Source: Fibrobacterota bacterium
GTDB lineage: Bacteria; Fibrobacterota; Fibrobacteria; UBA11236
DNA length: 64,000 nt
Reading direction: 5' to 3'
Assembly (NCBI GenBank): GCA_947466585.1
Contig: CANIEU010000005.1
Coordinates: 64,412-128,411 of the forward strand
Made by a program: the position numbers and the translations under genes
Shown here: one piece after another, positions 4,325-62,004 of the stretch
Position numbering within the stretch: the first letter of the stretch is position 1
Layout of the letters: each line of letters starts with the position of its first letter
Notes under the pieces: generated by a model
What the model was told of the DNA's origin: nothing
The model's input: only the letters and a program-made list of their open reading frames with translations
Database searches by the model: none

Positions 4325-6310
4325 TTATTTCTGCGGGAACGCTGCCACGCCTGTTTGGAAGGGCAGGTAGTTCGTGTTGAGGTCTTCGCCGTACTTGGCC
4401 CAGACCCGTTGAGCGTTGTCGGTTACCGTGACATATTCACAGTTTCCGCCGCGGAGTTGGACCTTGCTCATGTTGAAGGCGTTCGGCAAGGTGAAGTGCT
4501 CGTACACCGTCCAAGTGGTGAAGTCGATAACGCGTAAATAGGCCGATCCAGCGAGGTAGGCAAATTTGTCGCCGCAAATATCGATATCTTCGGGTGAGTT
4601 CATGGCATCCGGACCATACCACCAAGACCCCGGAAGTCCACCGACGTGAATCGCCGCGCGACCCGTCGAGGAGCCAGTGGGAATGGTGTAGATCGAGAAA
4701 ATCTGGTCACCCAATTTCACGTTCTGTGCAGGTCCCGCAGTTTCCGGCGAGTACAGGGTATACCACGCTCCACTGGTTCCTTGCTTGGCAAAGACAGTAC
4801 CGCCGTCGAGCACAATCAGAAGACCATTTCGAACGGCAAAGTCCGTCATGGAAGTCGCCGCCGGTGATACCCAATCTGTGGACCAAACACTCGGGTTGCT
4901 GGCAAGATACTTCGACCGAAGGCTCGGGTTGGTCCAATCCGGAACGCGCATCGTGAGGCGTTCGCCATCCTGACGGAAGTTGGAAATTCCCGCAATCCAT
5001 TGGTTCACCCAAGCGCCCGTAGGTGTTTTGGTGTAGAGGTTTCCATCGGTACTTTTGGCGGTCATATAACCACGGCTGTACTGGAATAACGTGACCGTAC
5101 CACTCGTTCCGGATCCAGGCCAGATCTGAACGTTCGATCCACCTGCTCCAAGGCGGCGATAGACATAGCCGTTGTTTTTGGAGAAGATGAGAGTGTCGCC
5201 TTCGGTAAAGAATTGATTCACATCCGTTGCGATCGTGTTGTAACCTTCATACCCAACGATCGACAGGTTGTTGTTGGTCAGCTTGACCGTGAGACCATGT
5301 GTTGGGTACAGAGTGCTGAAAGCCTTGAGGTCACCCGCCGTCAGGTTCGGGGTCGAAGAAGTCGTCGTGCCGTAGGTGAGAATCGAACTTCCCGGAGTCC
5401 AAGCGTCGCCATCGTTCACCGGCGTTCCGGGAATGTTGATGAGGCTTCCCATGTTCCAATAAAGGCCTTCCATACCTGTAAAGCCAACGTTTGTGGCCAA
5501 GGCGAAAAGGCTCATGACGACGGTCGTTTTTTGGTTTTGCGGGATGTTGCTCTCGTAACCCGTGTTCACCCACAGCGAAATGCCATCGGGTTCGACCAGT
5601 TCGTCGGGCGTAAGAACGGCGGTGCTGGTGTTCGTACCGTCAGGACCGATGCCGTACGAGCCGCGGATGGAAACGTCGTGGTTCGTGGATGAAGAAGTTT
5701 CGACAAACGAAATGGCAGTGCCTTTGGCCTGTGCGTTCCAGTTGGCGATGGCGGCACGCGCGGCGGATTGCCAGTTCGGGCCAATGCGGCCGGCGCCGGT
5801 TGTGTAGATGTAAACCTTGATCTGGTATACTTCCGGCAGCGCTTTGACATCAAACAAGCCGCTCCAGTAATCCCAACGCGTGTGCGCTTTCTTGGCGCCG
5901 GTCAAAAGATCGACTCCGCCCTTGTCCAGCTCGTTTTTCTTCCAGCGTGCGCGCAATTCACGCACCGTCTTGGCGCGCAAGCTAATGCTGTTGCGACGGG
6001 TGCCCTTGGTCTTGTCATTTTCCGAAAGGGTCGGGGTCATCATGTACAAGGTGTCGACACCAGCGGAGTCGAGTGTCGACACTCCGGAGAGCGCTGCCGG
6101 GGAGGCGGGATCGACATAGGACACGTAAATCATTTCACGCGCGACCCCGAGGGTATCCACGAGAAAGGAAAGCAGCGGATCACCGGTACCTGCTGAAGTC
6201 TTAACCGCACCTGAACTTGTGGTCGGGGTCTCGTTGAGACAACCGGTCAATAGGAGGGTAACGAACGTAAACGCCGCTGCAAAGATGCGGTAAAATTTTT
6301 GAGACGTCAT
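4325..6310 (-). CDS. large Thr/Ser/Gly/Asn-rich lipoprotein of unknown function
   Basis: 661 aa. Signal peptide plus lipobox (LLLTGC). No recognisable catalytic motif. GC content is visibly lower than the neighbouring genes. AT-rich 276-bp upstream region. Confidence 0.6.
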   Translation of the reverse strand: MTSQKFYRIFAAAFTFVTLLLTGCLNETPTTSSGAVKTSAGTGDPLLSFLVDTLGVAREMIYVSYVDPASPAALSGVSTLDSAGVDTLYMMTPTLSENDKTKGTRRNSISLRAKTVRELRARWKKNELDKGGVDLLTGAKKAHTRWDYWSGLFDVKALPEVYQIKVYIYTTGAGRIGPNWQSAARAAIANWNAQAKGTAISFVETSSSTNHDVSIRGSYGIGPDGTNTSTAVLTPDELVEPDGISLWVNTGYESNIPQNQKTTVVMSLFALATNVGFTGMEGLYWNMGSLINIPGTPVNDGDAWTPGSSILTYGTTTSSTPNLTAGDLKAFSTLYPTHGLTVKLTNNNLSIVGYEGYNTIATDVNQFFTEGDTLIFSKNNGYVYRRLGAGGSNVQIWPGSGTSGTVTLFQYSRGYMTAKSTDGNLYTKTPTGAWVNQWIAGISNFRQDGERLTMRVPDWTNPSLRSKYLASNPSVWSTDWVSPAATSMTDFAVRNGLLIVLDGGTVFAKQGTSGAWYTLYSPETAGPAQNVKLGDQIFSIYTIPTGSSTGRAAIHVGGLPGSWWYGPDAMNSPEDIDICGDKFAYLAGSAYLRVIDFTTWTVYEHFTLPNAFNMSKVQLRGGNCEYVTVTDNAQRVWAKYGEDLNTNYLPFQTGVAAFPQK

Positions 6311-22888: not shown

Positions 22889-24073
22889 TCACTCGAAATG
22901 AAGGGTCGGCTTGAAGGAGGGACTTTCGAGCCGCGCGGCTTCGGCCTGGGTTTCTTTCCACGCCGCGTGCTCACATCCGGCCCTTAGTTTCTCCCGCAAT
23001 TCCTCAAGGCCGATTTTCTTTTCGGCCGAGATGAAGGTCGCATCGGAGTAATGTGCGCGCAGTCCTTCGAGCTGTTCGGGTTCGAGCCGGTCGATTTTGT
23101 TGAAAACCGTCAGGCGCGGCGTTTCGGTGATTCCGAGTTCGGTGAGAATGCGGGCCGTGATTTCCATTTGTTCTTCGAAGTCGGGAGACGAGGCATCCAC
23201 GACGTTCAGAATGTGGGTGGCCTGCGCCGCCACGCTGAGCGTGCTTTTAAAGGAGGTAACCAAGCCGACCGGAAGTTTGCGGATGAACCCCACCGTATCC
23301 GAGAGCACCGCTTTTTGGCTGCCGCCGAGCCAGAGTTGGCGTGTCGTGGGATCGAGCGTGGCGAAAAGTTTGTCGACCGCTTCTACGCCCGCCTGTGTCA
23401 GCGCGTTCATCAAGGTCGATTTGCCCGCGTTGGTGTAGCCCACCAGCGCCGCGTGAAAGGTGGGACGGCGACGGTCGCGTTGCGAGGTCCGGATGCTTTC
23501 GACTTTTTGGAGTTTCTTTTTCAGGTCGGCGATGCGTTTGCGGATCGCCCTTCGGTCGGTTTCGAGTTGGGTCTCACCGGGTCCGCGCATGCCGATGCCG
23601 ACACCGCCCGCTTGCCGCGAAAGGTGCGTCCAGGCGCGGGTGAGGCGGGGGAGCATGTATTCGAGTTGCGCAACCTCGACCTGGATCTTGGCTTCGGCTG
23701 TGCGCGCATGCTTGGCGAAGATATCGAGGATGATACCGCTGCGATCCATGATCTTCACCTTGAGGATCTCTTCAAGCTTTTTGATCTGGGATCCGGAAAG
23801 ATCTTCGTCGAACAGGACGATATCGGCTTCGTATTGTTCCACTAAGGCGGCGACTTCACGGGCCTTGCCTTCGCCGATCATGGTGGTGGCGTCAAAGGAC
23901 GGGCGGCGTTGCAGCACGCGATCGACGACCACCGCACCGGCGGTTTCAGCAAGCCGTTCCAATTCTTCCAAATGTTCGCGGGCTTGCCGCGGTGTGACCT
24001 CGCGCGTGGCCACGCCGACGAGGATGGCTTTTTCGGGGCCTTTGCGAGTTTCTTTTTTCGAGTCGTTTTCCAT
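22889..24073 (-). CDS. hflX: GTPase HflX
   Basis: 394 aa counted from ATG 24071-24073. HflX N-terminal domain plus G-domain (VGYTNAGKSTL, DTVGF, NKID). Confidence 0.85.
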   Translation of the reverse strand: MENDSKKETRKGPEKAILVGVATREVTPRQAREHLEELERLAETAGAVVVDRVLQRRPSFDATTMIGEGKAREVAALVEQYEADIVLFDEDLSGSQIKKLEEILKVKIMDRSGIILDIFAKHARTAEAKIQVEVAQLEYMLPRLTRAWTHLSRQAGGVGIGMRGPGETQLETDRRAIRKRIADLKKKLQKVESIRTSQRDRRRPTFHAALVGYTNAGKSTLMNALTQAGVEAVDKLFATLDPTTRQLWLGGSQKAVLSDTVGFIRKLPVGLVTSFKSTLSVAAQATHILNVVDASSPDFEEQMEITARILTELGITETPRLTVFNKIDRLEPEQLEGLRAHYSDATFISAEKKIGLEELREKLRAGCEHAAWKETQAEAARLESPSFKPTLHFE

Positions 24074-24107
24074 GGAGTGCGAAAGGTACAAAGCAGGGGG
24101 GCTCACC

Positions 24108-24728
24108 TCAGTCCAGTCGCACCGCTTTGTGTGTTACTGAGGAAGTTTTCCCGTTGGCCGACGCAACAATACGCACGGTGTACATTCCGCTCGAGACCCG
24201 GTGGCCGTTTTGGTCTTTGCCGTCCCAAGTCAATTCGCGAATGTCCGCAGGTGGATCGAGCCCTTGGCGCCAAACCTTTCGGCCTGAAAGGTCAGAAAGG
24301 GTTACCGATACCTATTCGGTGTTCGCATCCAAGACAGGAAGCGGCAACACATACTGCATAGCATAGCCGGTCACTCGAATCGAAAAGGATTCCGTTTCGC
24401 CCGGGCCCAATTTGCCAAGCGGTGTAGTGGTCGCGATGCTCACCGCCATGCTATCGGATAAGCCGTTGAAATCGTTGTCCACGATCGCGGCGAACAGGCT
24501 TCCGTTCCAGGCGACATCCTGAATGGCGCGCAAGGTGCCGACGCCCGCATCGCGCTGCGTCCACGTAATTCCGTCCGGGGAGTTGACGAGCGCGCCCCGC
24601 ATGCCGACGGCGACATAAACGCTGCAGTTCCAGCTGACGGCTTTGAATTCCGTTGACCCGTCCAAAACTCCTTGGGCCCTCAACGGCATCGGGTGCATAA
24701 AAAACAGGGACACAAAAAGGAGCGACAT
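24108..24728 (-). pseudogene. small secreted T9SS-cargo-like protein interrupted by an in-frame TAG
   Basis: A signal-peptide ORF (24315-24728, MSLLFVSLFFMHPMPLRAQG...) stops at TAG (24312-24314). The next 68 codons in the same frame (24108-24311) encode a T9SS/FlgD-Ig-like C-terminal domain (VSVTLSDLSGRKV...LTWDGKDQNGHRVSSGMYTVRIVASANGKTSSVTHKAVRLD), ending at TGA 24108-24110. Confidence 0.6.
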
Positions 24729-24970
24729 GAAGCGAACCGAAATCTGGACATTGGAACCAGACAACAGGTTGAATCCGGATATGCGATGACCCGATCGTTG
24801 AAAAATGATAATGAACTAGTTGGGAATAACCCGTCAAAGTTTTTTAATTATCAGATAATGGACAAATTGAAACACGGAAATAAAGGTGTCAATGGGACGT
24901 CATCGCTTCAATAAAAATCTGCTAGCCGGCGCTCTTTAAAAGGGCAGGGTATTCACAAGCCATTGAGAAG

Positions 24971-25090
24971 GCTCGCAATGGCTCGCAATGGCTCGCAATG
25001 GCTCGCAATGGCTCGCAATGGCTCGCAATGGCTCGCGACGACTTGTAATTGATTGTAATGTCTTGTGAAGGTGGGGAATAGCTTGTGATG
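24971..25090. repeat. 10-bp minisatellite (GCTCGCAATG x6.6 plus ~5 decaying copies)
   Basis: Perfect head-to-tail copies span 24971-25036. They are followed by GCTCGCGACG, ACTTGTAATT, GATTGTAATG, TCTTGTGAAG, and a more diverged copy (GCTTGTGATG) after a short gap, to about 25090. Confidence 0.9.
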
Positions 25091-25108
25091 CCTATCCCGG
25101 AACCTGAA

Positions 25109-30735: not shown

Positions 30736-30860
30736 GGAAGGGGTGGGTAAGAGTGATTAGGGGATAGCAACACAAGACACGTTTGATTGCACCTCACTCG
30801 TCGCTATCCACTATCCACTATTCACTATTCACTATCCACTTTTTCCTACTTCCTACTTCT
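30734..30860. repeat. heptamer-array element: degenerate AGKGRWK units then (ATYCACT)x5 and (TACTTCY)x2
   Basis: ATCCACT at 30806-30812 and 30813-30819, ATTCACT at 30820-30826 and 30827-30833, ATCCACT at 30834-30840, then TTTTCC-TACTTCC-TACTTCT. Upstream, overlapping the TAG stop of the regulator, sits a degenerate inverted partner (AGGGAAG, AGTGATT, AGGGGAT, approximating AGTGGAT). Confidence 0.7.
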
Positions 30861-38432: not shown

Positions 38433-38713
38433 AGCCGGGCTGTGACCGTCGCTCTAGAGTGTCGCCTTCCGTCGCGAGGCTACCAGCCTCGGTGGCTCGC
38501 GCCATCGGCGCTCACGCTATCAGATCGGTGCAGGCAACATTCGACCCTCCTCAGGCTCCTACTAGAGCTTGGTCTCGCTCCGGCTGTGCTTTAGCATTGA
38601 GTTCTTTATGTATGAACCAAAAAAAGGCGGCCCCGCAAGGAGTGGCCTTTTTCTTTGTTCATGAAATTCTCAATGCCGGAGCGACACCCTAGAGCGGCGG
38701 TCGCAGCCCGGCT
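38433..38713. repeat. 281-bp structured element bounded by 33-bp imperfect terminal inverted repeats (MITE-like or sRNA/terminator module)
   Basis: AGCCGGGCTGTGACCGTCGCTCTAGAGTGTCGC (38433-38465) pairs with its reverse complement at 38681-38713 (30 of 33 match). The interior holds a nested hairpin ATGAAC-A7GGC-GGCC..GGCC-T5-GTTCAT at about 38608-38665, plus several smaller GC hairpins. Confidence 0.6.
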
Positions 38714-39354
38714 TATTTCTTTTTAAACGCGTGCGCCACCATCCCCATATAGGGATACTGCGATTCGGAGGCGATGGAGGTCACGGCACCCCCGTTTTCG
38801 ATTTGACGGATCTGGCCGGCGCCCTGCGGGTATTCGATGCCGGTGTAGGTGGCGTAAATGATATGCGTCGCGCCGATCCACATGCCGCGTTCAATGGCCG
38901 CATAGGCGAGGTTCCGTTTCCGTTCCTCAAGTCTGATGGCCGAGTTGGAGGTTTCGTAGAAGCAGAAATAGGGGAGGGGCGTGGCGCCGAGCGTGAAAAG
39001 GCTGCCGTACATCAGCGTCATGATGGGCGGGCAATAAAAGCGGCGCCAGGTTTCGTTGAAATCCACGAATCCGAGCCGCCAGTTGTCGAAGTTGCGCCGC
39101 ACGTAGATCTTGCCGAGGTATTCGTATTTGGATTTGTCGTAGCGCACCACGCCATCGGTACCCAAGGTGAAATCGTCGGGTGCGTTTTCAACGAAGAGGT
39201 GCGGGGTGACGTCGGTCGGCGTGACTTCGCTGTGTTTGTAGAAATCGCCGGCGCGGTCTGCGCGAGCTTCGAACACGGTGCTTGCACATCCCCCTAAGAT
39301 CGAGGCGCCGAGCAGGCTTCCAACGATGGTACCAAGTACAACGAGTCGCTTCAT
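38713..39354 (-). CDS. hypothetical lipoprotein
   Basis: 213 aa. Signal peptide plus lipobox (SILGGCAS). Confidence 0.55.
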   Translation of the reverse strand: MKRLVVLGTIVGSLLGASILGGCASTVFEARADRAGDFYKHSEVTPTDVTPHLFVENAPDDFTLGTDGVVRYDKSKYEYLGKIYVRRNFDNWRLGFVDFNETWRRFYCPPIMTLMYGSLFTLGATPLPYFCFYETSNSAIRLEERKRNLAYAAIERGMWIGATHIIYATYTGIEYPQGAGQIRQIENGGAVTSIASESQYPYMGMVAHAFKKK

Positions 39355-42274: not shown

Positions 42275-42763
42275 TCATAAGGTTTTCTTTGCGGACTTTG
42301 CATGTAAAAGATGGCAAAATGCGACCGCGAGAGCGTCGGCCGCGTCGGCGGGTTTGGGCAGATCGCGGAGCTTGAGGTGGGATTGCATCAGGGCGGCCAC
42401 TTGCTCCTTGGAAGCGCCGCCATGGCCGACCGCGGCCTTTTTAACGAGACGTGGGGCATATTCTTCCACGGCGACACCGCGCGATTGGGCGGCCACCATG
42501 ATGGCGCCGCGCGCATGGCCGAGAATAAGGGCCGACTGCGGGAACTTGGCGAGGAAGATGGATTCGAGCGCCAGCACCTTGGGGCTGTACGTGTCGATGA
42601 GCACACCCAGTTCGCGATGGATTTTTTCAAGACGGCGGGGGAGAGGATCGGAGGCTCGACTGCGGACGACGCCGTATTCGAGTACGGTGATTTTGCCCGC
42701 GCGCTCTTCGAGGAAGGCGTAGCCGGTGACCGCGGTGCCCGGGTCCACTCCGAGCACGATCAT
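42275..42763 (-). CDS. ruvC: crossover junction endodeoxyribonuclease RuvC
   Basis: 162 aa. N-terminus MIVLGVDPGTAVTGYAFLE. Confidence 0.9.
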   Translation of the reverse strand: MIVLGVDPGTAVTGYAFLEERAGKITVLEYGVVRSRASDPLPRRLEKIHRELGVLIDTYSPKVLALESIFLAKFPQSALILGHARGAIMVAAQSRGVAVEEYAPRLVKKAAVGHGGASKEQVAALMQSHLKLRDLPKPADAADALAVAFCHLLHAKSAKKTL

Positions 42764-42806
42764 TGGGGTCCTGACCCCTGTGCGATCACCGCAGCCTCCC
42801 GGTCAA

Positions 42807-43559
42807 TCAGAGATTTTCGATCTCGTCGGGATCGAACTCGGCGTTGGTGTGCACGTTCTGCACGTCGTCGAGATCGTCGAGAATTTCGAGCAGCGCCATG
42901 GCGCGCGCGGCGTCGGCACCGGTGACCTTGATCATGTTGTCAGCGACCTTGACCAGTTCGGAACTGGAGGGCTCCAGACCCTTCTTGGTCAAGGCGTCCA
43001 CCAGCGAATGGAAGTGCTCGGGCTCGACGCGGATTTCATATTCGTCACCGGAGGCGTCGAAATCTTCGGCCCCGTTTTCGGTGGCGAATTCGAACAACGC
43101 ATCTTCGCCGATCTTGTCCTTGGGCACGGTGATGATACCCCGGCTCTTGAACATCCAACCCACGGAGCCTTCTTCGCCCATGTTGCCACCGTGCTTACTG
43201 AAGGCGTGGCGCACTTCGGCGACCGTGCGGACGCGGTTGTCGGTGACGGTGTCGACGAGAATGGCAGTGCCACCCGGGCCGTAACCCTCGTAGGTGATTT
43301 CGAGATAGTTGACGCCCTCGAGTTCGCCGGCACCCTTGGCGATGTTGGTCTCGATGTTCTTCTGCGGCATGTTGGCCGCCTTGGCCTTGATCACCGCCGC
43401 GCGCAGACGGGGGTTGCCGTCGGGGTCGGAACCGCCCGCGCGGGCGGCTACCGTGAGCTCACGGATGATGCGGTTGAAGACCTTGGCGCGGGCCTGGTCG
43501 ATGCGCGCCTTTTTGCGTTTGGTGGTTGCCCATTTTGAGTGGCCGGACATGGAAAAACC
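42807..43559 (-). CDS. YebC/PmpR family DNA-binding regulator
   Basis: 250 aa counted from ATG 43557-43559 (MSGHSKWATTKRKKA...). The longer six-frame ORF upstream is rejected. Confidence 0.85.
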   Translation of the reverse strand, partial: GFSMSGHSKWATTKRKKARIDQARAKVFNRIIRELTVAARAGGSDPDGNPRLRAAVIKAKAANMPQKNIETNIAKGAGELEGVNYLEITYEGYGPGGTAILVDTVTDNRVRTVAEVRHAFSKHGGNMGEEGSVGWMFKSRGIITVPKDKIGEDALFEFATENGAEDFDASGDEYEIRVEPEHFHSLVDALTKKGLEPSSSELVKVADNMIKVTGADAARAMALLEILDDLDDVQNVHTNAEFDPDEIENL

Positions 43560-45386: not shown

Positions 45387-47069
45387 TTAGTAGTGAAGGG
45401 TTACTTCGGTGAACCCCGTCGGGGTCGCCAGCGGCACGCCCGGGTTGCCGCGGAAGTTTTCCACCCACAATCCCCCCGCTCCCACGCGCAGTTGGGCATA
45501 GCGTTTCCAGTTCCACGACGCGGCGACCTCCACCGCATTGCGGGTTTCCACATCGCGCTCGAGAAAGGCCTTGGTCGTGGACTCGGGTGGCGGGCCGATG
45601 TCGTACACGTTGAAGATCGAACTGCCACGAGACTTGAGGTCGCGCTGGCGAAAGCGCCATTCCACGGATGCGTCGATATTGCGGGGAAGTGGGAACTCAG
45701 CCGAGGCCGAAAGCGCGCGAGAGTTGGGCGGCAGCGAGCTGCCCAGCAAGGCACCGTAATGCTGCATCGCGGTATTGCGCAGGTGGTGACCGTAAGTCCA
45801 CGGATCGACGCTCGCGTATTCTACGTGCAACTCGGCGGGCAGGTCGAAGGGATCCTGCCAAGCGCCGCCGACCACAATCGCAAATTTGTTGCCGCGGAAA
45901 TCGAATGGGGGGCCGCTGTAATCGTCTACCAACAATTCACCGTAGGCGCGTCCGTGGCCGGTCCAGGTCCACTCGACATCGGCGGAGATTGCGGAGTTGT
46001 CTTTGTCGCCGCCCGAGTGCTCGGCGAACTTCAAGGGAATGCCGGGAACCATCAGCAGCATGTCGGGGCCCTTGGTGCCGATGGTTAAAAGTTCCGAAGC
46101 ACCAAACTTCCAGTCACCGAGACGCAGTTGCACGCGATGGGCCACGAGATATACGGCAGAGTCGGCGGAAAGGCCCGTGCGCTGGGCCACGATCTTCACA
46201 TATTCCCAGCGATCGCCGCCGATGCGCAATCGGATCTGCGGCAGCGGTGCGTTTTCACCGGGATAGCGGTACCCCCGCCGGGCTTTCCAGAAGGTGTTTT
46301 CGGTACCCTCGAATCCCGAAAGGCTGTCGGCTGCGAGGGAATCCATCGCCCAAAAATGCGGGCGGGCACTGAGTGTGGCGTGTTGCCAGTGGCCCGGTCC
46401 CCATTGATTCCAGTCCTGGCCGGCATCTAGCGACAGACGCCCGTCGGTGAACCCGATCAGCGTGCGGAATCCGTCGAAGGTGGATACCGGCTGCGGAATG
46501 CCGGGCACCGGCTTTCCATCCCGACCCGTGCCATACGGCATGCCGCGTTGCGGGTTGTAATTCTCGATGAAGCGACCGTGGGTGTTGCGCTCGCTGCCGA
46601 TTGTCGCCTGGGCCGAAAAATAAACGTGCTCGCGATAGGTCCCTTGCACGCCGGGCGTCAAACTTCCGAACGCAAATGCCTGTGCATGCGGAACCGAATC
46701 TTGCGCATACACGCCGGTGAAATATTCCACCGTGCCGCGCAACTTGAACAGACTGTCGGAGAAGTGCAGGCGCGTGCTGCGCCACCGACGTTCCGGATCG
46801 AACTCTTCGAGGTAGCGTTCCACGCGCCGTTTGTCCCAAGGTGAGAGGTCGGCACCGTTGCCGTGCGCGGAGTCGATGGCGGATGCCAGTGCGGCGGCGA
46901 CTTCGCTTTCGGCGCGGGGGAGGGTGCTCCAAAATCCCGGATGGATGGCGCCCTTCTCTTCAAGCCGCCGCAGCAGGTTCGCGACGGGGTGGGTGACCTC
47001 GACCGGCATGGCCGGTGTGAGGGTCGGGACACTCAAAAGCAGGGCTGTGAATAGCGGAATCAGGCGCAT
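45387..47069 (-). CDS. outer-membrane beta-barrel protein, paralog 2
   Basis: 560 aa counted from ATG 47067-47069 (MRLIPLFTALLLSVPT...). Ends ...TLHY. Shares conserved blocks with paralog 1 (DWNQWGPGHWQH, NTAMQHYGALLGS). Confidence 0.5.
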   Translation of the reverse strand: MRLIPLFTALLLSVPTLTPAMPVEVTHPVANLLRRLEEKGAIHPGFWSTLPRAESEVAAALASAIDSAHGNGADLSPWDKRRVERYLEEFDPERRWRSTRLHFSDSLFKLRGTVEYFTGVYAQDSVPHAQAFAFGSLTPGVQGTYREHVYFSAQATIGSERNTHGRFIENYNPQRGMPYGTGRDGKPVPGIPQPVSTFDGFRTLIGFTDGRLSLDAGQDWNQWGPGHWQHATLSARPHFWAMDSLAADSLSGFEGTENTFWKARRGYRYPGENAPLPQIRLRIGGDRWEYVKIVAQRTGLSADSAVYLVAHRVQLRLGDWKFGASELLTIGTKGPDMLLMVPGIPLKFAEHSGGDKDNSAISADVEWTWTGHGRAYGELLVDDYSGPPFDFRGNKFAIVVGGAWQDPFDLPAELHVEYASVDPWTYGHHLRNTAMQHYGALLGSSLPPNSRALSASAEFPLPRNIDASVEWRFRQRDLKSRGSSIFNVYDIGPPPESTTKAFLERDVETRNAVEVAASWNWKRYAQLRVGAGGLWVENFRGNPGVPLATPTGFTEVTLHY

Positions 47070-47131
47070 GGAGGCGAATAGTAACCAACCCTGTGGCGCC
47101 GTGCCTTCTCTCGGGAGGCTATCTTTAACCC

Positions 47132-47686
47132 ATGATCCTCGCAATAACCTCGCTCGGAAAAGAGCCCAGCTCCCTCCAATTATCAGGGAATCCTTCTGAT
47201 TTCGTCGAATTCGCCGATTCGGGTATTTCCACCCCTATCCGGCTGAATCTGGATGTGACCCCTCTTTCCGGTGATTCGCATCTGGTGCAAGGCCGGGCCG
47301 TGGGAGCTTTGGCTGCCGAATGTGGTCGCTGCGTCGAGCCGATCACCCTCCCTTTCTCTGTGCATTTCAACCTCTTACTCGATCGCCAAGACCCGGTCGG
47401 GGTGGAGTGGGTCGATGACGACCATCAGGGCGTAGAGGACTATCAGGCCCATCTGGGGCCCGATGTGACGGAAATTCCTCTGCAATCCATCATTGCGGAA
47501 CAGCTCGTTTTGAACTATAATTTGCACCCTCTTCCGGATCTTGACGCGGCAGGCCGCTGCGTGCAATGCGGTCGGACTCCCATTGCGGTGGCCGAACCCA
47601 AGAAAAAGGATGAGGGAGTGGACCCCCGCTGGGCGAAACTCGAAGGTTTAAAGGGTTCTAGTGGTTTAGAAGGTTCGAAAGAGTAA
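47132..47686 (+). CDS. yceD: YceD/DUF177 family protein (large-subunit rRNA accumulation protein)
   Basis: 184 aa. Contains paired CxxC-like GRCVEP...RCVQCGR motifs. Occupies the conserved position upstream of rpmF. Confidence 0.7.
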   Translation: MILAITSLGKEPSSLQLSGNPSDFVEFADSGISTPIRLNLDVTPLSGDSHLVQGRAVGALAAECGRCVEPITLPFSVHFNLLLDRQDPVGVEWVDDDHQGVEDYQAHLGPDVTEIPLQSIIAEQLVLNYNLHPLPDLDAAGRCVQCGRTPIAVAEPKKKDEGVDPRWAKLEGLKGSSGLEGSKE

Positions 47687-47853
47687 GGGTCGATGGCCCT
47701 GCCGACGGTTCTCTGAAACCGGTACGGTGGCCAGCAGTCCTTCGCTCTTCGAATATCAAACTGACAAAGCTGAAATTGGATTGCGGTAAAGCACCATTTT
47801 CAATGAGCTTACAAAGAGTATCTGATTGTTCTGAGGATTTTAAGGGAGTTATC

Positions 47854-48033
47854 ATGGCAGTACCCAAACGGAAAACTTCGACGGCTCGCCGCGACAAGCG
47901 CCGGACCCACTGGAAGCTGGAGGCCGCTGCGGTTTCCAAGTGCACCCACTGCGGCCAAAACAAAATCGCACACCGCGTTTGCGGCAACTGCGGTTTTTAC
48001 GGTAACGCCGAGGTCCGCCAGCCGGCGGAGTAA
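47854..48033 (+). CDS. rpmF: 50S ribosomal protein L32
   Basis: 59 aa. N-terminus MAVPKRKTSTARRDKRR. Confidence 0.9.
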   Translation: MAVPKRKTSTARRDKRRTHWKLEAAAVSKCTHCGQNKIAHRVCGNCGFYGNAEVRQPAE

Positions 48034-48045
48034 CCCAACCCGCGA

Positions 48046-49011
48046 TTGATGATTAAGGTTGCACTGGACGCCATGGGCGGGGATAATGCCCCCGAAGCCG
48101 TGGTGGAGGGCGCAGTACTCGCAGCGCGCGAAGCGGCGGGGCGGTACGGTATTGTCCTGACGGGCCCCGAAGAGGTCGTCACTCCCCTGATCGCAAAATA
48201 CGGCGGGGCAGATCTCGGGATCGAAGTTTTTCATGCGCCCGATATCGTGGCCATGGACGACTCCCCGGCCGCCGTTTTGAAAACCAAACCCAATTCCGGT
48301 CTCGTCGCCTGCGTCGCCCTGCAAAAGGCCGGCAAGGTGCAGGCTAGCATATCCGCCGGCAACTCCGGTGCGATGATGGCCGCCTGTCTCATGATCCTGG
48401 GGCGCGTGGGTCAGATTTCCCGTCCTGCCATCGCCTGCGTAATGCCTTCGCTGAACAAGCCCACTGTGGTGCTCGATTGCGGCGCCAACGTCGACGAAAA
48501 GCCGGCCACACTGGTGCACTTCGGCATTTGCGGTTCCGTGTTCGCCGAAGCCGTTTTGGGACGTACCAACCCCAAGGTCGGCTTGCTGAACATGGGCGAA
48601 GAAGAGAAAAAGGGTCCCGAGACCCTGCAAGAAGCCCACCAACTGCTCAAGCAAGCTCCGCTGAACTTCACCGGCAACGTCGAAGGTCGCGACCTCCTCA
48701 AGGGCGAAGTCGACGTGGTGGTGACCCCCGGTTACACGGGCAATGTGGTGTTGAAGTTGATGGAGGGTTTTCACGAGTACCACCTCAGCCTGTTCGGACA
48801 GATCGACTCCCCCGCGGGCCGTCAGTTCGAAAACGACTGGGATTACTCGAACATCGGTGCGGCCTTGTTGCTCGGCCTCAATGGCGCGGGCCTCATCACC
48901 CACGGTCGTGCCGACGCCAAGGCCATCAAAAACGGTGTGGAAGCCGCGTATCAGCAGGCTGCTGCGGGCGTCGCCGAAAAAATTGCCGCGAAGCTGACAC
49001 AGGTCGCTTGA
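48046..49011 (+). CDS. plsX: phosphate acyltransferase PlsX
   Basis: 321 aa. N-terminus MMIKVALDAMGGDNAP. Confidence 0.9.
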   Translation: MMIKVALDAMGGDNAPEAVVEGAVLAAREAAGRYGIVLTGPEEVVTPLIAKYGGADLGIEVFHAPDIVAMDDSPAAVLKTKPNSGLVACVALQKAGKVQASISAGNSGAMMAACLMILGRVGQISRPAIACVMPSLNKPTVVLDCGANVDEKPATLVHFGICGSVFAEAVLGRTNPKVGLLNMGEEEKKGPETLQEAHQLLKQAPLNFTGNVEGRDLLKGEVDVVVTPGYTGNVVLKLMEGFHEYHLSLFGQIDSPAGRQFENDWDYSNIGAALLLGLNGAGLITHGRADAKAIKNGVEAAYQQAAAGVAEKIAAKLTQVA

Positions 49012-49077
49012 TTCGCTCGATTCCACGGTCGCCTGCGGGCGAACCGCGCGAGTCTTAAAAAATCCCGAAGGAGTATC

Positions 49078-50028
49078 ATGGGTGCCATCATCTCCGGCTT
49101 GGGAATCTCCCTTCCCGACAATGTGCTGACCAACGCCGATCTCGAGCGGATGGTGGACACCTCCGACGAATGGATTCTTACGCGCACCGGCATTCGTGAA
49201 CGGCGCATTCTTCCCAAAGACAGTCCTCTGCTGGCTTCCGATCTCGGAGCCGCCGCCGCCTTGCAGGCGTTGCAACGCGCCGGTGTTCGCGCCGATCAGG
49301 TCGGAGCGATTCTGGTAGGCGGTATCGTACCGGACATGCAGTTCCCGTCCACAGCGTGCATCATCCAGGAAAAAATCGGCGCCAAAAACGCCTTCGCGTT
49401 CGATATCACCGCCGCCTGCGCAGGGTTCGTCTACGGCGTGAACATGGCCTCGCTTCTGATCGACTCGGGACAGTGCGACCATGTGCTCGTGATCGGCGCG
49501 GAAACACTTTCACGCGCGGTCGACTGGACCGATCGCAACACTTGCATTCTCTTCGGGGACGCAGGCGCCGCCGCGGTGCTCAGCCGTGGCCCGAAGGATC
49601 GCGGCGTGATCCGCTCGTTGCTACGCAGTGACGGCGGCGCTGCCGATATTCTCAAGCTCGGCAATCTCGCGCACGGCACAGCATGCATCAACATGGACGG
49701 CAAGCACGTCTTCAAGCTTGCGGTCTCTGAAGTGTCGCGTGTGGTGGTGGACACGCTTGCGCTCGAAGGGCTGACAGCGGCCAACCTCGATCTGTTTGTC
49801 GCCCATCAAGCCAACGTGCGCATTCTCAACGCCATCGGCGAAAAGCTCGGCCTACCCGAAGAGAAGGTGATGGTGAACGTGCAGCGCTACGGGAACACCT
49901 CCTCGGCCTCCGTTCCGCTCGCCTTGTTTGAGGCGGAAGCGGAGGGCCGCCTCAAGCCCGGTATGCTCGTGGGCCTCGCCGCCGTGGGCGGCGGTATGGC
50001 GTGGGGATGCAATTTGGTGCGGTGGTGA
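49078..50028 (+). CDS. fabH: 3-oxoacyl-ACP synthase III
   Basis: 316 aa with the AACAGF active-site Cys region. Confidence 0.9.
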   Translation: MGAIISGLGISLPDNVLTNADLERMVDTSDEWILTRTGIRERRILPKDSPLLASDLGAAAALQALQRAGVRADQVGAILVGGIVPDMQFPSTACIIQEKIGAKNAFAFDITAACAGFVYGVNMASLLIDSGQCDHVLVIGAETLSRAVDWTDRNTCILFGDAGAAAVLSRGPKDRGVIRSLLRSDGGAADILKLGNLAHGTACINMDGKHVFKLAVSEVSRVVVDTLALEGLTAANLDLFVAHQANVRILNAIGEKLGLPEEKVMVNVQRYGNTSSASVPLALFEAEAEGRLKPGMLVGLAAVGGGMAWGCNLVRW

Positions 50029-50117
50029 TCCCACTGTAGCACCTGAACGCGGTATATTCCTTGAAATTCCATCGAATCCCAGAAAAGCACTGATACGCAA
50101 AAAGGATTTTTCCGGTC

Positions 50118-51029
50118 ATGAGCAAACGCATCCTTCTCTTTCCCGGCCAAGGTTCCCAATACCTCGGTATGGGCAAAAAACTTTCCGAATCCCATGCAGG
50201 CGCCAAGCGCATTCTTGACGAAGCGAATGCGGTGCTCGGATTCGATCTTTCCGACATTCTGTGGAACGGTCCCGAAGAGAAGCTGACCTCCACCGACAAT
50301 ACCCAGCCGGCATTGTTCACCGTGTCGATGATGGCGTATGAGTGGTTGAAGGAACATCATCTTTCGGCTGATTACGCCGCCGGTCATTCGCTCGGCGAAT
50401 ATTCTGCCCTGTGCGCGGCAGGTGTGTTCTCCTTCGCCGACGGCTTGCGTCTGGTGCGCCTGCGCGGCGAATTGATGGCCAAGGCCGGCGTGGCCAAACC
50501 CGGCGCCATGTCCGCCATTCTGGGGCTCGAGCGCGACAAGCTCGAAGAGGCGCTCGCGGGCGCGGCTTCCGCAGGCATCGTGGTTGCGGCCAACTTCAAC
50601 AGCACCACGCAAATCGTGATCTCGGGCGAAAGCGCAGCGGTGGAAGCCGCTGAAAAACTCTCCACCGAACTGGGCGCGAAAAAAGTGGTGCGTCTCGCCG
50701 TGAGCGGCGCGTTCCACTCGCCGCTGATGGGCTATGCCGTAGACGGATTGGGCGCTGGTCTCGAATCGGTGGCCTTCGCCGCGCCGAAGATTCCGATCAT
50801 CAACAACGTGGATGCACACACCGAAAGCGATCCCGCCGCGCTCAAGGATGGATTGCTCCGTCAGCTTACCTCGCCGGTGCGCTGGGTCGAATCGATGCAG
50901 TTCGCCGCCGCACAAGGCGTCACCGAAGGACTCGAAGTGGGCGCCGGCAAGGTGCTTATGGGTCTCTTGCGCGGCATCACGCGCGACATCAAGGTCACGC
51001 CGGTGGAGAATCCTGAGGACTTGGCTTAA
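50118..51029 (+). CDS. fabD: malonyl-CoA:ACP transacylase
   Basis: 303 aa with GHSLGEY. Confidence 0.9.
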   Translation: MSKRILLFPGQGSQYLGMGKKLSESHAGAKRILDEANAVLGFDLSDILWNGPEEKLTSTDNTQPALFTVSMMAYEWLKEHHLSADYAAGHSLGEYSALCAAGVFSFADGLRLVRLRGELMAKAGVAKPGAMSAILGLERDKLEEALAGAASAGIVVAANFNSTTQIVISGESAAVEAAEKLSTELGAKKVVRLAVSGAFHSPLMGYAVDGLGAGLESVAFAAPKIPIINNVDAHTESDPAALKDGLLRQLTSPVRWVESMQFAAAQGVTEGLEVGAGKVLMGLLRGITRDIKVTPVENPEDLA

Positions 51030-54660: not shown

Positions 54661-56451
54661 TTGCAAGAATCTCCCGTCGCGCCCGCTCCAGAAACTCCCT
54701 CCACTGCAGGCTTGCCCTTGATCGTTCAGGGCGATATGACCGTGCTGCTCGAGGTCAACCACCCGATGCACGATGAGGCCCGCGATGCGATCGCCCCGTT
54801 TACGGAGCTGGTCAAGAGTCCGGAGCACGTGCACACCTACGCGATCTCCCATTTGTCCCTGTGGAATGCGGCGTCGGCCGGGCACAGCTCGACCGAGGTG
54901 TTGACCATTTTGCGTGGGTTGTCGCGGTACGCGTTGCCCGCCAACGTGGTTTTCGAGATCGAGAGCTTCATGGACCGCTACGGCATGGTGCGCTTGCGCC
55001 GCGTGCCCGAAGGCCTCGTGCTCGAAGCGGATGATGCCGGGCTGCTCGCCGAGATTTGCAAGCATCGCGAAGTGGCGCTGCATTTGGCCGATCCGGCAGA
55101 GAGCGAGCCGGTGTCGCAGCCCGAGACGGGTTCGCGCGTACTGCTTCTGCCTCATGCCCGCGGTCCGGTGAAGGTCGCGTTGACCCAGATCGGGTTTCCT
55201 GCAGAAGATTTGGCCGGTTATGCCGAAGGCCATCCGCTCAAGGTTTCCCTGCGCGAGACCACGCTCGACGGCAAACCCATGGGGTTGCGCGATTATCAAG
55301 ATGCCGCTTCGCGCGTGTTCCATGCCGGCGGTTCGGAAAAGGGCGGCTCCGGCGTGATCGTGTTGCCTTGCGGTGCCGGCAAAACCGTGGTGGGCTTGGC
55401 GACCATGGTGCGCTGCCAGTGCCATACGCTAGTGCTGACCACCAACGTCACGGCGGCACGCCAGTGGATCCGCGAGATTCTCGACAAGACCACGCTGACG
55501 TCCGACCAGGTGTCGGAGTATACCGGCGACAGCAAGACCATCGCGCCGGTGACCGTGGCCACCTACCAGATTCTGACCTACCGCAAACGCAAGACCGAAG
55601 AGTATCCGCATTTCGGCATCTTCGCCCAAAATTCTTGGGGCCTCATCCTGTATGATGAGGTGCACCTGTTGCCCGCGCCGGTGTTCCGCATTTCGGCGGA
55701 TATGCAAGCCACGCGCCGCCTCGGCCTTACGGCCACGCTGGTGCGCGAAGACGGCAAGCAGAAGGAAGTCTTCTCGCTCATCGGCCCCAAGCGCTTCGAG
55801 GTTCCCTGGAAGCAGTTGGAGGCGCAGGGCTGGATCGCCACGGCGATCTGCACCGAGATCCGCGTACCGCTGCGCAATAGCGAGCGCCTGACCTACGCGT
55901 TGGCCGACTTGCGCGAAAAGACCATGCTGGCTTCCACCAACCCCGAGAAAATCGCGGTGGTGCGTGAGCTGCTCAACCGTCACAAGAACGACCGCGTGCT
56001 CATCATTGGGCAGTATCTCAGCCAGCTCGATCTCTTGCGCGATCTACTCGGCTTTCCGCTCATCACCGGTTCGACGCCGAATTCGGAACGTGAGCGCTTG
56101 TTCGGAGCCTTCCGTTCCGGTGAGATCACCACGCTGATCGTTTCGAAGGTCGGTAACTTCGCCGTCGATATCCCTGACGCGAACGTGTTGATTCAGGTTT
56201 CGGGTACCTTCGGAAGCCGTCAGGAAGAGGCCCAGCGCCTCGGCCGCGTGCTGCGTCCCAAGGCCAACGGCTCGCTGGCCCACTTTTACACGCTGATCAC
56301 CCGCGACACCAAGGAGCAGGAGTTCGGCATGAACCGCCAGTTGTTCCTGATCGAACAAGGTTACAGCTACGACGTACGGGAGTGGAAGGACTTTCTGGTG
56401 AACGGGGAGACGGATGCGCCTGGAGAAACGGTCGCTCCGGAAAACCCGTAA
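54661..56451 (+). CDS. XPB/Ssl2 (ERCC3-like) superfamily-2 DNA helicase
   Basis: 596 aa (TTG start as listed, so the start is uncertain). Motif I VLPCGAGKT, motif II DEVH, an XPB-specific RED motif (TATLVREDGKQ), and a C-terminal RecA2 domain. Confidence 0.8.
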   Translation: MQESPVAPAPETPSTAGLPLIVQGDMTVLLEVNHPMHDEARDAIAPFTELVKSPEHVHTYAISHLSLWNAASAGHSSTEVLTILRGLSRYALPANVVFEIESFMDRYGMVRLRRVPEGLVLEADDAGLLAEICKHREVALHLADPAESEPVSQPETGSRVLLLPHARGPVKVALTQIGFPAEDLAGYAEGHPLKVSLRETTLDGKPMGLRDYQDAASRVFHAGGSEKGGSGVIVLPCGAGKTVVGLATMVRCQCHTLVLTTNVTAARQWIREILDKTTLTSDQVSEYTGDSKTIAPVTVATYQILTYRKRKTEEYPHFGIFAQNSWGLILYDEVHLLPAPVFRISADMQATRRLGLTATLVREDGKQKEVFSLIGPKRFEVPWKQLEAQGWIATAICTEIRVPLRNSERLTYALADLREKTMLASTNPEKIAVVRELLNRHKNDRVLIIGQYLSQLDLLRDLLGFPLITGSTPNSERERLFGAFRSGEITTLIVSKVGNFAVDIPDANVLIQVSGTFGSRQEEAQRLGRVLRPKANGSLAHFYTLITRDTKEQEFGMNRQLFLIEQGYSYDVREWKDFLVNGETDAPGETVAPENP

Positions 56452-56480
56452 TTATGGAAGCAGAAACCGGTGCAGCCCGA

Positions 56481-58131
<1,651 letters not shown>

Positions 58132-58135
<4 letters not shown>

Positions 58136-60951: not shown

Positions 60952-61114
60952 GAAATGAGAAATGAGAATTGAGAAATGAGAAATGAGAAATGAGAAATGA
61001 AGGTTTGGCATTCGGAGGGGCATTCGACCAAGCTTCAAAAATCAGGAAATAATGGGGAATCCGCTGGCGGTGTTCCTCTTTTTTTCTCATTTCTCATTTC
61101 TCAATTCTCATTTC
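60952..61114. repeat. heptamer-array inverted element: (GAAATGA)2-GAATTGA-(GAAATGA)4 ... (TCATTTC)2-TCAATTC-TCATTTC
   Basis: Left array 60952-61000, right array 61087-61114, 86-nt spacer. Even the variant unit (GAATTGA / TCAATTC) is mirrored. Starts 7 nt after the fabF stop. Confidence 0.9.
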
Positions 61115-62004
61115 GGTTTCTCGCCTACTCTCTGGTCTCCTTCACTTCCCTTTCGTTCGCCGCATCGAACACCGTCATCACGGTGCCGGGCGATCAGGGC
61201 AAACCGAAGGCGCTCGAAATCAGCCCGGCGCTGCGCGATTACTGCGGCCTGATCTACGCCTGCGGGCTCAAGGTGCGCGCGGGTACCTGCCCCGCACCCA
61301 AGGACCTCGGGCCGCCCGCGCCGTTTTCGCCGCAGGGCGAACGTTGCGTCGAAGCCCGCGAGCTGGAAACGCGCGGTTTGCGCGCGGATAACCCGGAGTA
61401 TGGATTCCGGCTGTTCCGGTTGTTGGGATTCGAATACCGTGTCGTTTATCACATTCCCGATACGGTGGAAATTTCACGCGCGCGTCTCGAGTATTTACTG
61501 AACGATATTCCGCTGTCGGCCAAACTGATCTCTCATTACCGGCAGACCCCCTACAAGGCCGAGTATGTGAACGCCGCGCACACCCAATTCAAAGGCGAGA
61601 AGGGGACACGCTTGCGCGGCGAGGCCCGTTTGATATCCGGATCCTACGCGGAACGTCGTCTCATTTATCTGGGAACCGGCGTGGCCGAAATCGCCTTCTG
61701 GACGCTGGTCGGCCCGGGCATGATGGATTTCAATTACCGCGAGCTTCCGGCGACAGGCAAAATTCCGGAGCGCATCGTGTACGATCTCAAGGTGGTGGTG
61801 TTTCCCGGAAACGGCATGATCAACTCCATCATGAATCTGGGACTGTTCCGCAACGTGGTCTCCGACAAGGTGCGCGGCGTACTGACCGACATCACCGAGA
61901 CTGCGAAATTGTTGAAGGCCGATCAGGGCAAACAGCTCTTGAAAAACATGGAATGGTCGGCAGACGAGCGGAAGAAAATCGAAACTTTGTTGAAGCTGGA
62001 GTGA
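60997..62004 (+). CDS. hypothetical protein (start uncertain)
   Basis: 335-aa six-frame ORF. Its first ~40 codons are translation of the heptamer arrays (FFSFLISQFSFRF), so the true start is probably downstream of ~61120. The remaining ~290 aa show good codon bias and end 2 nt before trmH. Confidence 0.45.
   Translation: MKVWHSEGHSTKLQKSGNNGESAGGVPLFFSFLISQFSFRFLAYSLVSFTSLSFAASNTVITVPGDQGKPKALEISPALRDYCGLIYACGLKVRAGTCPAPKDLGPPAPFSPQGERCVEARELETRGLRADNPEYGFRLFRLLGFEYRVVYHIPDTVEISRARLEYLLNDIPLSAKLISHYRQTPYKAEYVNAAHTQFKGEKGTRLRGEARLISGSYAERRLIYLGTGVAEIAFWTLVGPGMMDFNYRELPATGKIPERIVYDLKVVVFPGNGMINSIMNLGLFRNVVSDKVRGVLTDITETAKLLKADQGKQLLKNMEWSADERKKIETLLKLE

Follow-up and report, generated by a model that had tools for sequence, protein, structure and literature searches.

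The interrupted frame between guaA and hflX

The 64,000-nucleotide stretch analysed here (the window; positions 64,412 to 128,411 of contig CANIEU010000005.1, assembly GCA_947466585.1) belongs to an uncultured bacterium of the Fibrobacterota, and carries, on its minus strand between the genes guaA and hflX, an open reading frame (ORF) that is interrupted by an in-frame amber codon. The ORF runs from an ATG at 24728, or from an alternative TTG at 24764, to a TAG at 24314-24312 and so comprises 138 or 150 codons, respectively. Past the TAG, a further 67 sense codons follow in frame before a TGA at 24110-24108 (Table 1). Translation of the minus strand over window positions 24105-24800 gives ...PLPVLDANTE up to the TAG, and then VSVTLSDLSGRKVWRQGLDPPADIRELTWDGKDQNGHRVSSGMYTVRIVASANGKTSSVTHKAVRLD up to the TGA; the post-stop peptide quoted in the initial annotation of this locus, LTWDGKDQNGHRVSSGMYTVRIV, is present in frame. 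That annotation had described a signal-peptide ORF with a fused product of 207 amino acids. A signal peptide is plausible by eye, with a hydrophobic LLFVSLFF followed by ...PLRA/QG, while the length is corrected to 206 amino acids from the ATG or 218 from the TTG, the latter start adding 12 residues, including one Arg, ahead of the ATG.

The codon context at the stop is GAA-TAG-G, and the site lies outside any homopolymer or repeat. By itself an open run of 67 codons is unremarkable at around 60% GC (estimated P ~0.09), and other post-stop runs in the window are equally long. A coding-looking extension past the stop was, however, found for no other TAG-terminated ORF in the window.

The stop codon is real and is shared by every sampled public assembly of the strain. 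Nine loci were fetched, three from ENA (ERZ27280169, ERZ27263727 and ERZ28612983) and six from Logan assemblies (ERR12084923, ERR12084924, ERR12084926, ERR3761205, ERR3761214 and SRR6787039), representing several projects and assemblers, and the TAG and its surrounding DNA are identical in all of them. The entire 223-nt TAG-to-TGA segment is unchanged in eight of the nine, the contig of the ninth ending before the TGA. The 138-residue product is recorded in 15 contigs, and a search of a 5.8-billion-protein collection found no uninterrupted 206-residue allele. The copies of the locus represent practically one near-clonal strain, with at least 99.97% identity and 0-1 single-nucleotide differences per 1.2-3.7 kb.

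TAG is also an ordinary stop in this genome. It ends 16 of the 45 long ORFs in the window, including those for a prc-like S41 protease, FtsK, a sigma-54 activator and guaA; alignments of the guaA product to its relatives run to the last residue, 594, exactly at its TAG. A global reassignment of UAG is therefore unlikely, as had originally been argued from prc, ftsK and the sigma-54 regulator.

By comparison with related loci, the interrupted ORF is an insertion specific to this lineage, within a housekeeping array that is otherwise conserved (pepA, guaA, hflX, DUF58, batA). Retrieval of relatives based on HflX places the organism in the Fibrobacterota, the best matches being Fibrobacteria metagenome-assembled genomes (MAGs) with 62-88% HflX identity. 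In 17 related Fibrobacteria loci the distance from guaA to hflX is 10 to ~390 nt, compared to ~1035 nt in the window, and in none of these 17 does a homolog of the ORF lie between the two genes, either by tblastn with the fused protein or at the DNA level. No gene of any kind separates guaA from hflX in these relatives, and only the 3' end of guaA aligns to them as DNA.

Table 1. Positions, in window coordinates, of the interrupted ORF, its parts and the surrounding spacer.
Feature	Position	Strand	Remarks
In-frame amber codon TAG	24312..24314	-	Fused-protein position 139, in the strand 2-3 loop
Terminal TGA of the full-length frame	24108..24110	-	34 nt ahead of the hflX ATG at 24073
Post-stop 67 codons	24111..24311	-	Strands 3-7 of the FlgD-Ig / T9SS-CTD-like sandwich
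Pre-stop portion of the C-terminal module	24315..24473	-	Residues 86-138: He_PIG-type Ig tail, linker, beta-strands 1-2 of the terminal sandwich
Propeller-like repeat, ~1.5 copies	24480..24650	-	Residues 27-83; 'W.G..F.AVG...SPDGITWT'
Putative Sec signal peptide	24675..24728	-	Residues 1-18 from the ATG at 24728; read from the sequence by eye
Lineage-specific guaA-hflX spacer, ~1035 nt	24074..25108	-	Contains the tandem repeat, an AT-richer stretch and the interrupted ORF
Perfect 10-bp tandem repeat GGCTCGCAAT x6.7	24970..25036	.	Degenerate 10-bp periodicity over 24950-25089; between guaA and the interrupted ORF
Sigma-70-like promoter match TTGACG, 18 nt, CATTAT	24808..24837	-	Weak: 1 site vs 0.8 expected by chance

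The C-terminal module and its full-length relatives

The stop falls inside a single recognisable domain. On the fused protein, Pfam FlgD_ig (PF13860) scores 35.2 bits, above its gathering cutoff of 27, over residues 133-191, a match that begins six residues ahead of the stop; the 67 post-stop residues alone score 33.4 bits. Together with the translation, this match across the stop supports the initial proposal that the amber codon interrupts one frame and one domain. All residues that are invariant in the family are retained after the stop.

Homologs were obtained by running HMMER in full over 1.84 billion representative proteins with residues 85-206 as query, an X being placed at the stop, since word-index protein searches with the fused protein and with its C-terminal half returned essentially only the query itself. 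The scan gave 971 matches, of which 30 are single stretches that extend to either side of the stop. All 30 end no more than 17 residues from the protein C-terminus, which identifies the ~115-residue piece as a conserved C-terminal module. Whether relatives are uninterrupted had been suggested as a check, and the answer is the expected one: all 30 modules are continuous across the TAG column, which is occupied by Arg (seven), Gln (six), Asn (four), Lys, Ala and Glu (three each), Ser (two), Leu and Asp (one each). The closest homologs, P0007 (63% identity) and P0010 (54%), read ...DANTE-N-V... here, with AAC in place of the window TAG. The HMMER matches of P0007, P0010 and P0019 begin at query residues 5, 2 and 8, respectively. 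Several homologs, P0010 and P0007 among them, are only some 200 residues long; they were considered as genuine small members of the family and rejected, P0007 and P0010 being contig-edge fragments of large Ig-repeat proteins. In locus L170 a gap interrupts the scaffold and further Ig repeats lie upstream; L171 is a contig of 600 nt.

An AlphaFold2 model of the fused sequence, based on a shallow alignment of 12 rows, predicts a seven-strand sandwich over residues 111-206, with strands at 114-119, 125-129, 141-145, 151-156, 165-168, 181-191 and 194-205. Block means of the predicted local distance difference test (pLDDT) are 70-91 in this region and 74-91 in its post-stop part. The stop follows the second of the seven strands, and the frame ends one residue past the last; ~25 codons ahead of the TAG contribute to the sandwich along with the 67 behind it. 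Residues 1-110 have pLDDT below 40 and no predicted fold. An internal restart at the TTG at 24233 was considered as a source of a separate product and discarded as implausible, since it would give only a 41-residue ORF with part of the sandwich.

The published fold of the C-terminal domains (CTDs) that serve the secretion system of type IX (T9SS) as sorting signals is a seven-strand 3+4 sandwich (PMC11285876), and T9SS-type CTDs have been reported for Fibrobacter and the Fibrobacterota (PMC6851124, PMC11285876). The module shares with T9SS type A CTDs (TIGR04183 / Por_Secre_tail; RgpB, PorU, PorZ) a length of ~95 residues, a position at the extreme C-terminus, a predicted seven-strand Ig-like sandwich whose last strand includes a Lys, and a G-x-Y motif. 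The NCBIfam models for PorZ (E 2.8e-6) and PorU (E 4.9e-5) are matched in part, at their CTD ends, and Foldseek against the PDB ranks Porphyromonas gingivalis PorU (6za2) first, at E 1.4e-3, ahead of FlgD Ig domains, each of the structural matches being weak (E > 1e-3). Unlike accepted members, however, the module falls short of the curated TIGR04183 cutoff of 23, with 17.3 bits for the fused protein and 16.9 for the post-stop piece, a result that counts against formal membership, and it has no match to Por_Secre_tail (PF18962) at E <= 1. Pfam scans of the window found no gene of the T9SS machinery, which comprises SprA/Sov, PorV, PorU and GldK/L/M/N. With its extreme C-terminal position, its CTD-like fold, its affinity to the PorU and PorZ CTDs and a host phylum of the Fibrobacteres-Chlorobi-Bacteroidetes (FCB) group, 'T9SS cargo' is a reasonable description of the probable role of the module in intact relatives. 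Of the initial description of a clean, preserved T9SS/FlgD-Ig CTD, the preservation is thus borne out by the invariant residues and the FlgD_ig score, while the T9SS label is probable only.

The resemblance to the FlgD Ig-like domain extends to structure, with Foldseek matches to 7eha and 3osv at root mean square deviations of 3-4 Å over ~77 residues. The flagellar hook-cap protein itself is nevertheless not what is encoded here: scores for the NCBIfam FlgD equivalogs are ~20-32 bits, where the cutoffs are 230 or higher, and the best of them, 31.7 bits for a cutoff of 230, covers the Ig domain only. The module instead ends secreted proteins with He_PIG repeats, so that the name FlgD_ig describes its fold and not its function. 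In annotation, an FlgD_ig-type module that ends He_PIG-repeat proteins is accordingly to be read as a C-terminal sorting-type domain and not as flagellar FlgD.

The part upstream of the module contains the repeat 'W.G..F.AVG...SPDGITWT', which occurs in 5-30 copies in many large metagenome proteins, compared to ~1.5 in the window ORF. The window repeats match P0002 and, with 41% identity (E 9e-10), the blades of P0019; one member of the repeat family matches DUF6242. A scan of JGI metagenomes yielded relatives of the N-terminal repeats only, none with the C-terminal module and none from the same strain. A 354-residue protein of locus L090 (1556-3657) consists of 'SPDGITWT / WNGS' repeats and lies amid genes that resemble, by eye, those of phage baseplates and tails; the DUF6242-like repeat family seems to be common to phage tail proteins and bacterial surface proteins.

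Both ends of the window ORF meet in two much larger proteins, P0019 (1409 residues) and P0027 (1231 residues), encoded on Ga0606640_0000750. Each has a signal-peptide-like N-terminus, ~13 repeats, ~7 He_PIG (PF05345) Ig domains and an FlgD_ig-type C-terminal module, and the window protein matches the P0019 C-terminus with 46% identity (E 9e-27). The window ORF thus has the same DUF6242-like repeat type and the same ~115-residue module as these surface proteins, and corresponds to the two ends of their architecture joined in frame near residues 83-86, with ~1100-1200 residues missing. It differs from them further in its setting: P0019 and P0027 lie in paralog arrays beside glycosyltransferase genes, whereas the window ORF, with its in-frame TAG, stands alone between housekeeping genes. 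No paralog of it was found within the window.

The array in question (L172/L173, at 16.2-36.5 kb of JGI Ga0606640_0000750) comprises four consecutive, same-strand paralogous surface-protein genes for proteins of 871, 533, 1409 and 1231 residues. All four products have He_PIG repeats and three have the FlgD_ig C-terminal module as well. The array lies amid genes of the glycosyltransferase, epimerase and TMEM260-like types, includes one small glycosyltransferase gene on the opposite strand, and looks like a cell-envelope or adhesin island.

A probable decaying surface-protein gene and the alternatives

We consider it likely that the interrupted ORF is the decaying remnant of a gene for a large secreted cell-surface protein, reduced by an internal collapse and then struck by a recent nonsense mutation. 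The ancestor would have had a signal peptide, ~13 propeller-like repeats, ~7 He_PIG Ig domains and a ~100-residue C-terminal sorting module of the FlgD-Ig/T9SS-CTD-like type. The collapse would have left its two ends joined in frame, namely the signal peptide, ~1.5 repeats, the last Ig strand and the C-terminal module. Later, a point mutation would have converted a codon of the variable loop between strands 2 and 3 into TAG; CAG, AAG and GAG are each one step away from it. Translation would now end after 138 residues and the product, if made, would be an unfoldable fragment lacking a sorting signal, either periplasmic or degraded. The 67 downstream codons would look intact owing to the youth of the mutation relative to the divergence of the homologs, and not to continued translation. 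From this comparison we infer in what order and by which mechanism the collapse took place, that function was lost and that the module depends on T9SS.

Several observations support such a view of the truncated product. With only two of the seven sandwich strands kept, it could not be sorted as a T9SS CTD cargo. In RgpB the loss of even the last two residues blocks export (PMC11285876), so that sorting would be lost with a stop that follows strand 2. The N-terminal part, with 1.5 repeats where the family has 5-30, and with pLDDT below 40, is too short to fold. The stop itself interrupts a domain that is continuous in all 30 homologs, and the deficit relative to P0019 and P0027 is large, both being disabling lesions by comparison with intact homologs, as in a pseudogene. 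Where the initial annotation implied an intact T9SS cargo gene, the frame appears to be a collapsed remnant of a ~1200-1400-residue architecture within a lineage-specific insertion. Among the origins then offered for the stop, a recent nonsense mutation is the best supported and a sequencing error is refuted.

So described, the locus is an ordinary pseudogene-type feature. Like other bacterial pseudogenes, it shows two lesions, independent of one another, in a lineage-specific gene that is not essential and whose frame can still be recognised, beside intact essential genes, and it is unlike the typical case only in how clean the post-stop domain remains. Seen so, it is a clean and well-documented example of a young pseudogene from uncultured Fibrobacteria, in which a surface-protein gene has collapsed and newly gained a nonsense codon, and is of little wider import. 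For annotation, the 138-residue 'hypothetical protein' of the databases, P0001, needs a flag that marks it as the 5' portion of a gene that is disrupted.

Selection signals are consistent with this reading without singling it out. Against the two closest homologs, L171 and L170, the proportion of synonymous differences (pS) is 0.62-0.79, so that synonymous sites are saturated, and the corresponding nonsynonymous value (pN) drops from 0.34-0.35 ahead of the stop to 0.19-0.23 beyond it; at such saturation, a comparison of nonsynonymous to synonymous rates (dN/dS) before and after the stop shows only that the stop is young relative to the divergence of the paralogs. The post-stop part would have been under purifying selection for nearly all the time since that divergence, and lacks visible decay, which fits a recent mutation and continued translation equally well. 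GC content at third codon positions (GC3) is 0.79 for residues 1-84, 0.65 for 85-138 and 0.58 after the stop. The last value lies in the lowest 3.3% of 67-codon windows drawn from the genes of the window, whereas the 0.73 of the whole pre-stop part is typical. The low post-stop GC3 hints weakly at relaxed codon selection, at decay that has begun, or at different origins for the two halves of the chimera.

A number of points weigh against a decaying remnant. There is no excess of amino-acid change after the stop and all invariant residues are kept, the same pattern that continued translation would give. The frame stayed open through the presumed collapse, ends just short of hflX and has a promoter-like site upstream; a mini-gene that is still expressed retains some probability on these grounds. 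All known copies belong to one near-clonal strain, which leaves a conserved and a transient stop without an evolutionary test. Finally, no parent gene for this stump came to light, and the collapse is deduced from the architecture of relatives.

The strongest of the other explanations, which we nevertheless regard as unlikely, holds that the cell tolerates the truncation or even benefits from it: the 138-residue secreted product (~120 residues when mature) would be functional but relocated, and the downstream 67 codons would be fresh debris. The presence of the allele in every sampled assembly, the plausible putative signal peptide together with the promoter-like site, and a pre-stop GC3 typical of the genes of this genome would all accord with it. 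Fixation in a near-clonal population, however, says little about selection, and 138 residues amount to 1.5 repeats, part of an Ig strand and two of seven sandwich strands, no complete fold unit among them, as the low pLDDT of residues 1-110 also indicates. Protein searches, moreover, gave no homolog with the same layout.

Programmed or leaky read-through of the UAG, also among the options first raised, is a good deal harder to sustain and we judge it very improbable. A mostly periplasmic short form would here be accompanied by some 206-residue form, made with a near-cognate Gln, Lys or Tyr tRNA and sorted to the surface by its CTD. Such a scheme would explain why the domain is entirely undamaged past the stop and has diverged less from its homologs there than ahead of it, why the frame ends just ahead of hflX, and why the stop sits in a variable loop that tolerates any residue. 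On the other hand, a 121-nt segment that takes in the TAG and what follows it has no stronger fold than shuffled sequence (z = -0.54), and a hairpin spotted by eye just downstream is set aside on the same result; Rfam has no match in the region or anywhere in the window; and the window contains no tRNA gene, suppressor or otherwise. TAG is a frequent and efficient stop in this genome, and no other gene of the window shows the pattern. The diverged homologs all have a sense codon at the TAG column, these being paralog-level relatives and not orthologs, and no diverged ortholog that conserves the stop was found. The gene is, furthermore, a stump for which no function that would call for regulation is apparent, and its post-stop GC3 is low. 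Background near-cognate suppression would yield only traces of the long form. A deliberately leaky stop in a minimal secreted gene, in which a rare read-through form regains a T9SS-type sorting domain for surface display, is more doubtful still. If true, read-through would be a first example of translational control of T9SS-type sorting, a switch of cargo localisation in the Fibrobacterota; nothing here points there.

Decoding of UAG as an amino acid, whether by a reassigned code, by pyrrolysine or by phage-style recoding of an inserted phage gene, can be rejected with near certainty on stop usage and context. The repeat type of the N-terminal part is also found in phage-tail-like proteins such as that of L090, and the segment is a lineage-specific insertion, but that insertion holds a single small ORF of host-like GC, Pfam scans show no phage genes nearby in the window, there is no tRNA(CUA) within its 64 kb, and the TAG-terminated long ORFs, the conserved guaA among them, stop at homologous C-termini. 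A sequencing or assembly error concealing a sense codon, initially one of the candidate explanations and favoured solely by its prior plausibility for MAG data, is excluded by the identical DNA of nine loci from independent assemblies, at a site free of homopolymers and repeats.

The spacer and other features of the window

Upstream of the ORF, the promoter-like match lies in an AT-richer stretch of the spacer, with 45% GC compared to ~60% around it. No convincing direct or inverted terminal repeats were found that would mark the ~1-kb spacer as a mobile element. The GGCTCGCAAT array varies in copy number: loci L001, L006, L008 and L009 have a deletion of 30 nt, or three units, relative to the window, and five Logan contigs break within it. 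A 10-bp period corresponds to one helical turn, and its copy-number variation upstream of the promoter-like site could affect expression, or the array may be a plain slippage-prone repeat.

Short heptamer tandem repeats are present elsewhere in the window, namely CTATCCA x5.3 (30804-30840), GAAATGA x7 (60952-61000) and TTCATCA x4.3 (56566-56595). The first two lie between called ORFs, and the third inside the ORF at 56414-58135. The guaA-hflX spacer of the closest relative has short tandem repeats of its own (L027 4630-4700 and 4940-4970), and intergenic tandem repeats of 7-10 bp may be a habit of this Fibrobacteria lineage.

Three of the related loci, L010, L026 and L027 (CAYQFG010000009.1, CAZRWX010000061.1 and CAZKRC010000081.1), are titled 'uncultured Bifidobacterium sp.' or 'Bifidobacteriales'. 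They carry guaA-hflX-DUF58 loci with HflX 62-88% identical to that of the window, so that these taxonomic labels look wrong. By HflX, L010 (83%) and L027 (88%) are the closest relatives found.

Seven ORFs of the window, of 213-661 residues, remain unmatched in Pfam at E <= 1e-5; their GC3 resembles that of genes. On the minus strand these are 4325-6310, 45387-47144, 47809-49482, 49887-50915 and 38713-39354, and on the plus strand 42726-43538 and 60997-62004. Four of the seven were rescanned at E <= 0.01, still with no match (60997-62004 was scanned at that threshold only).

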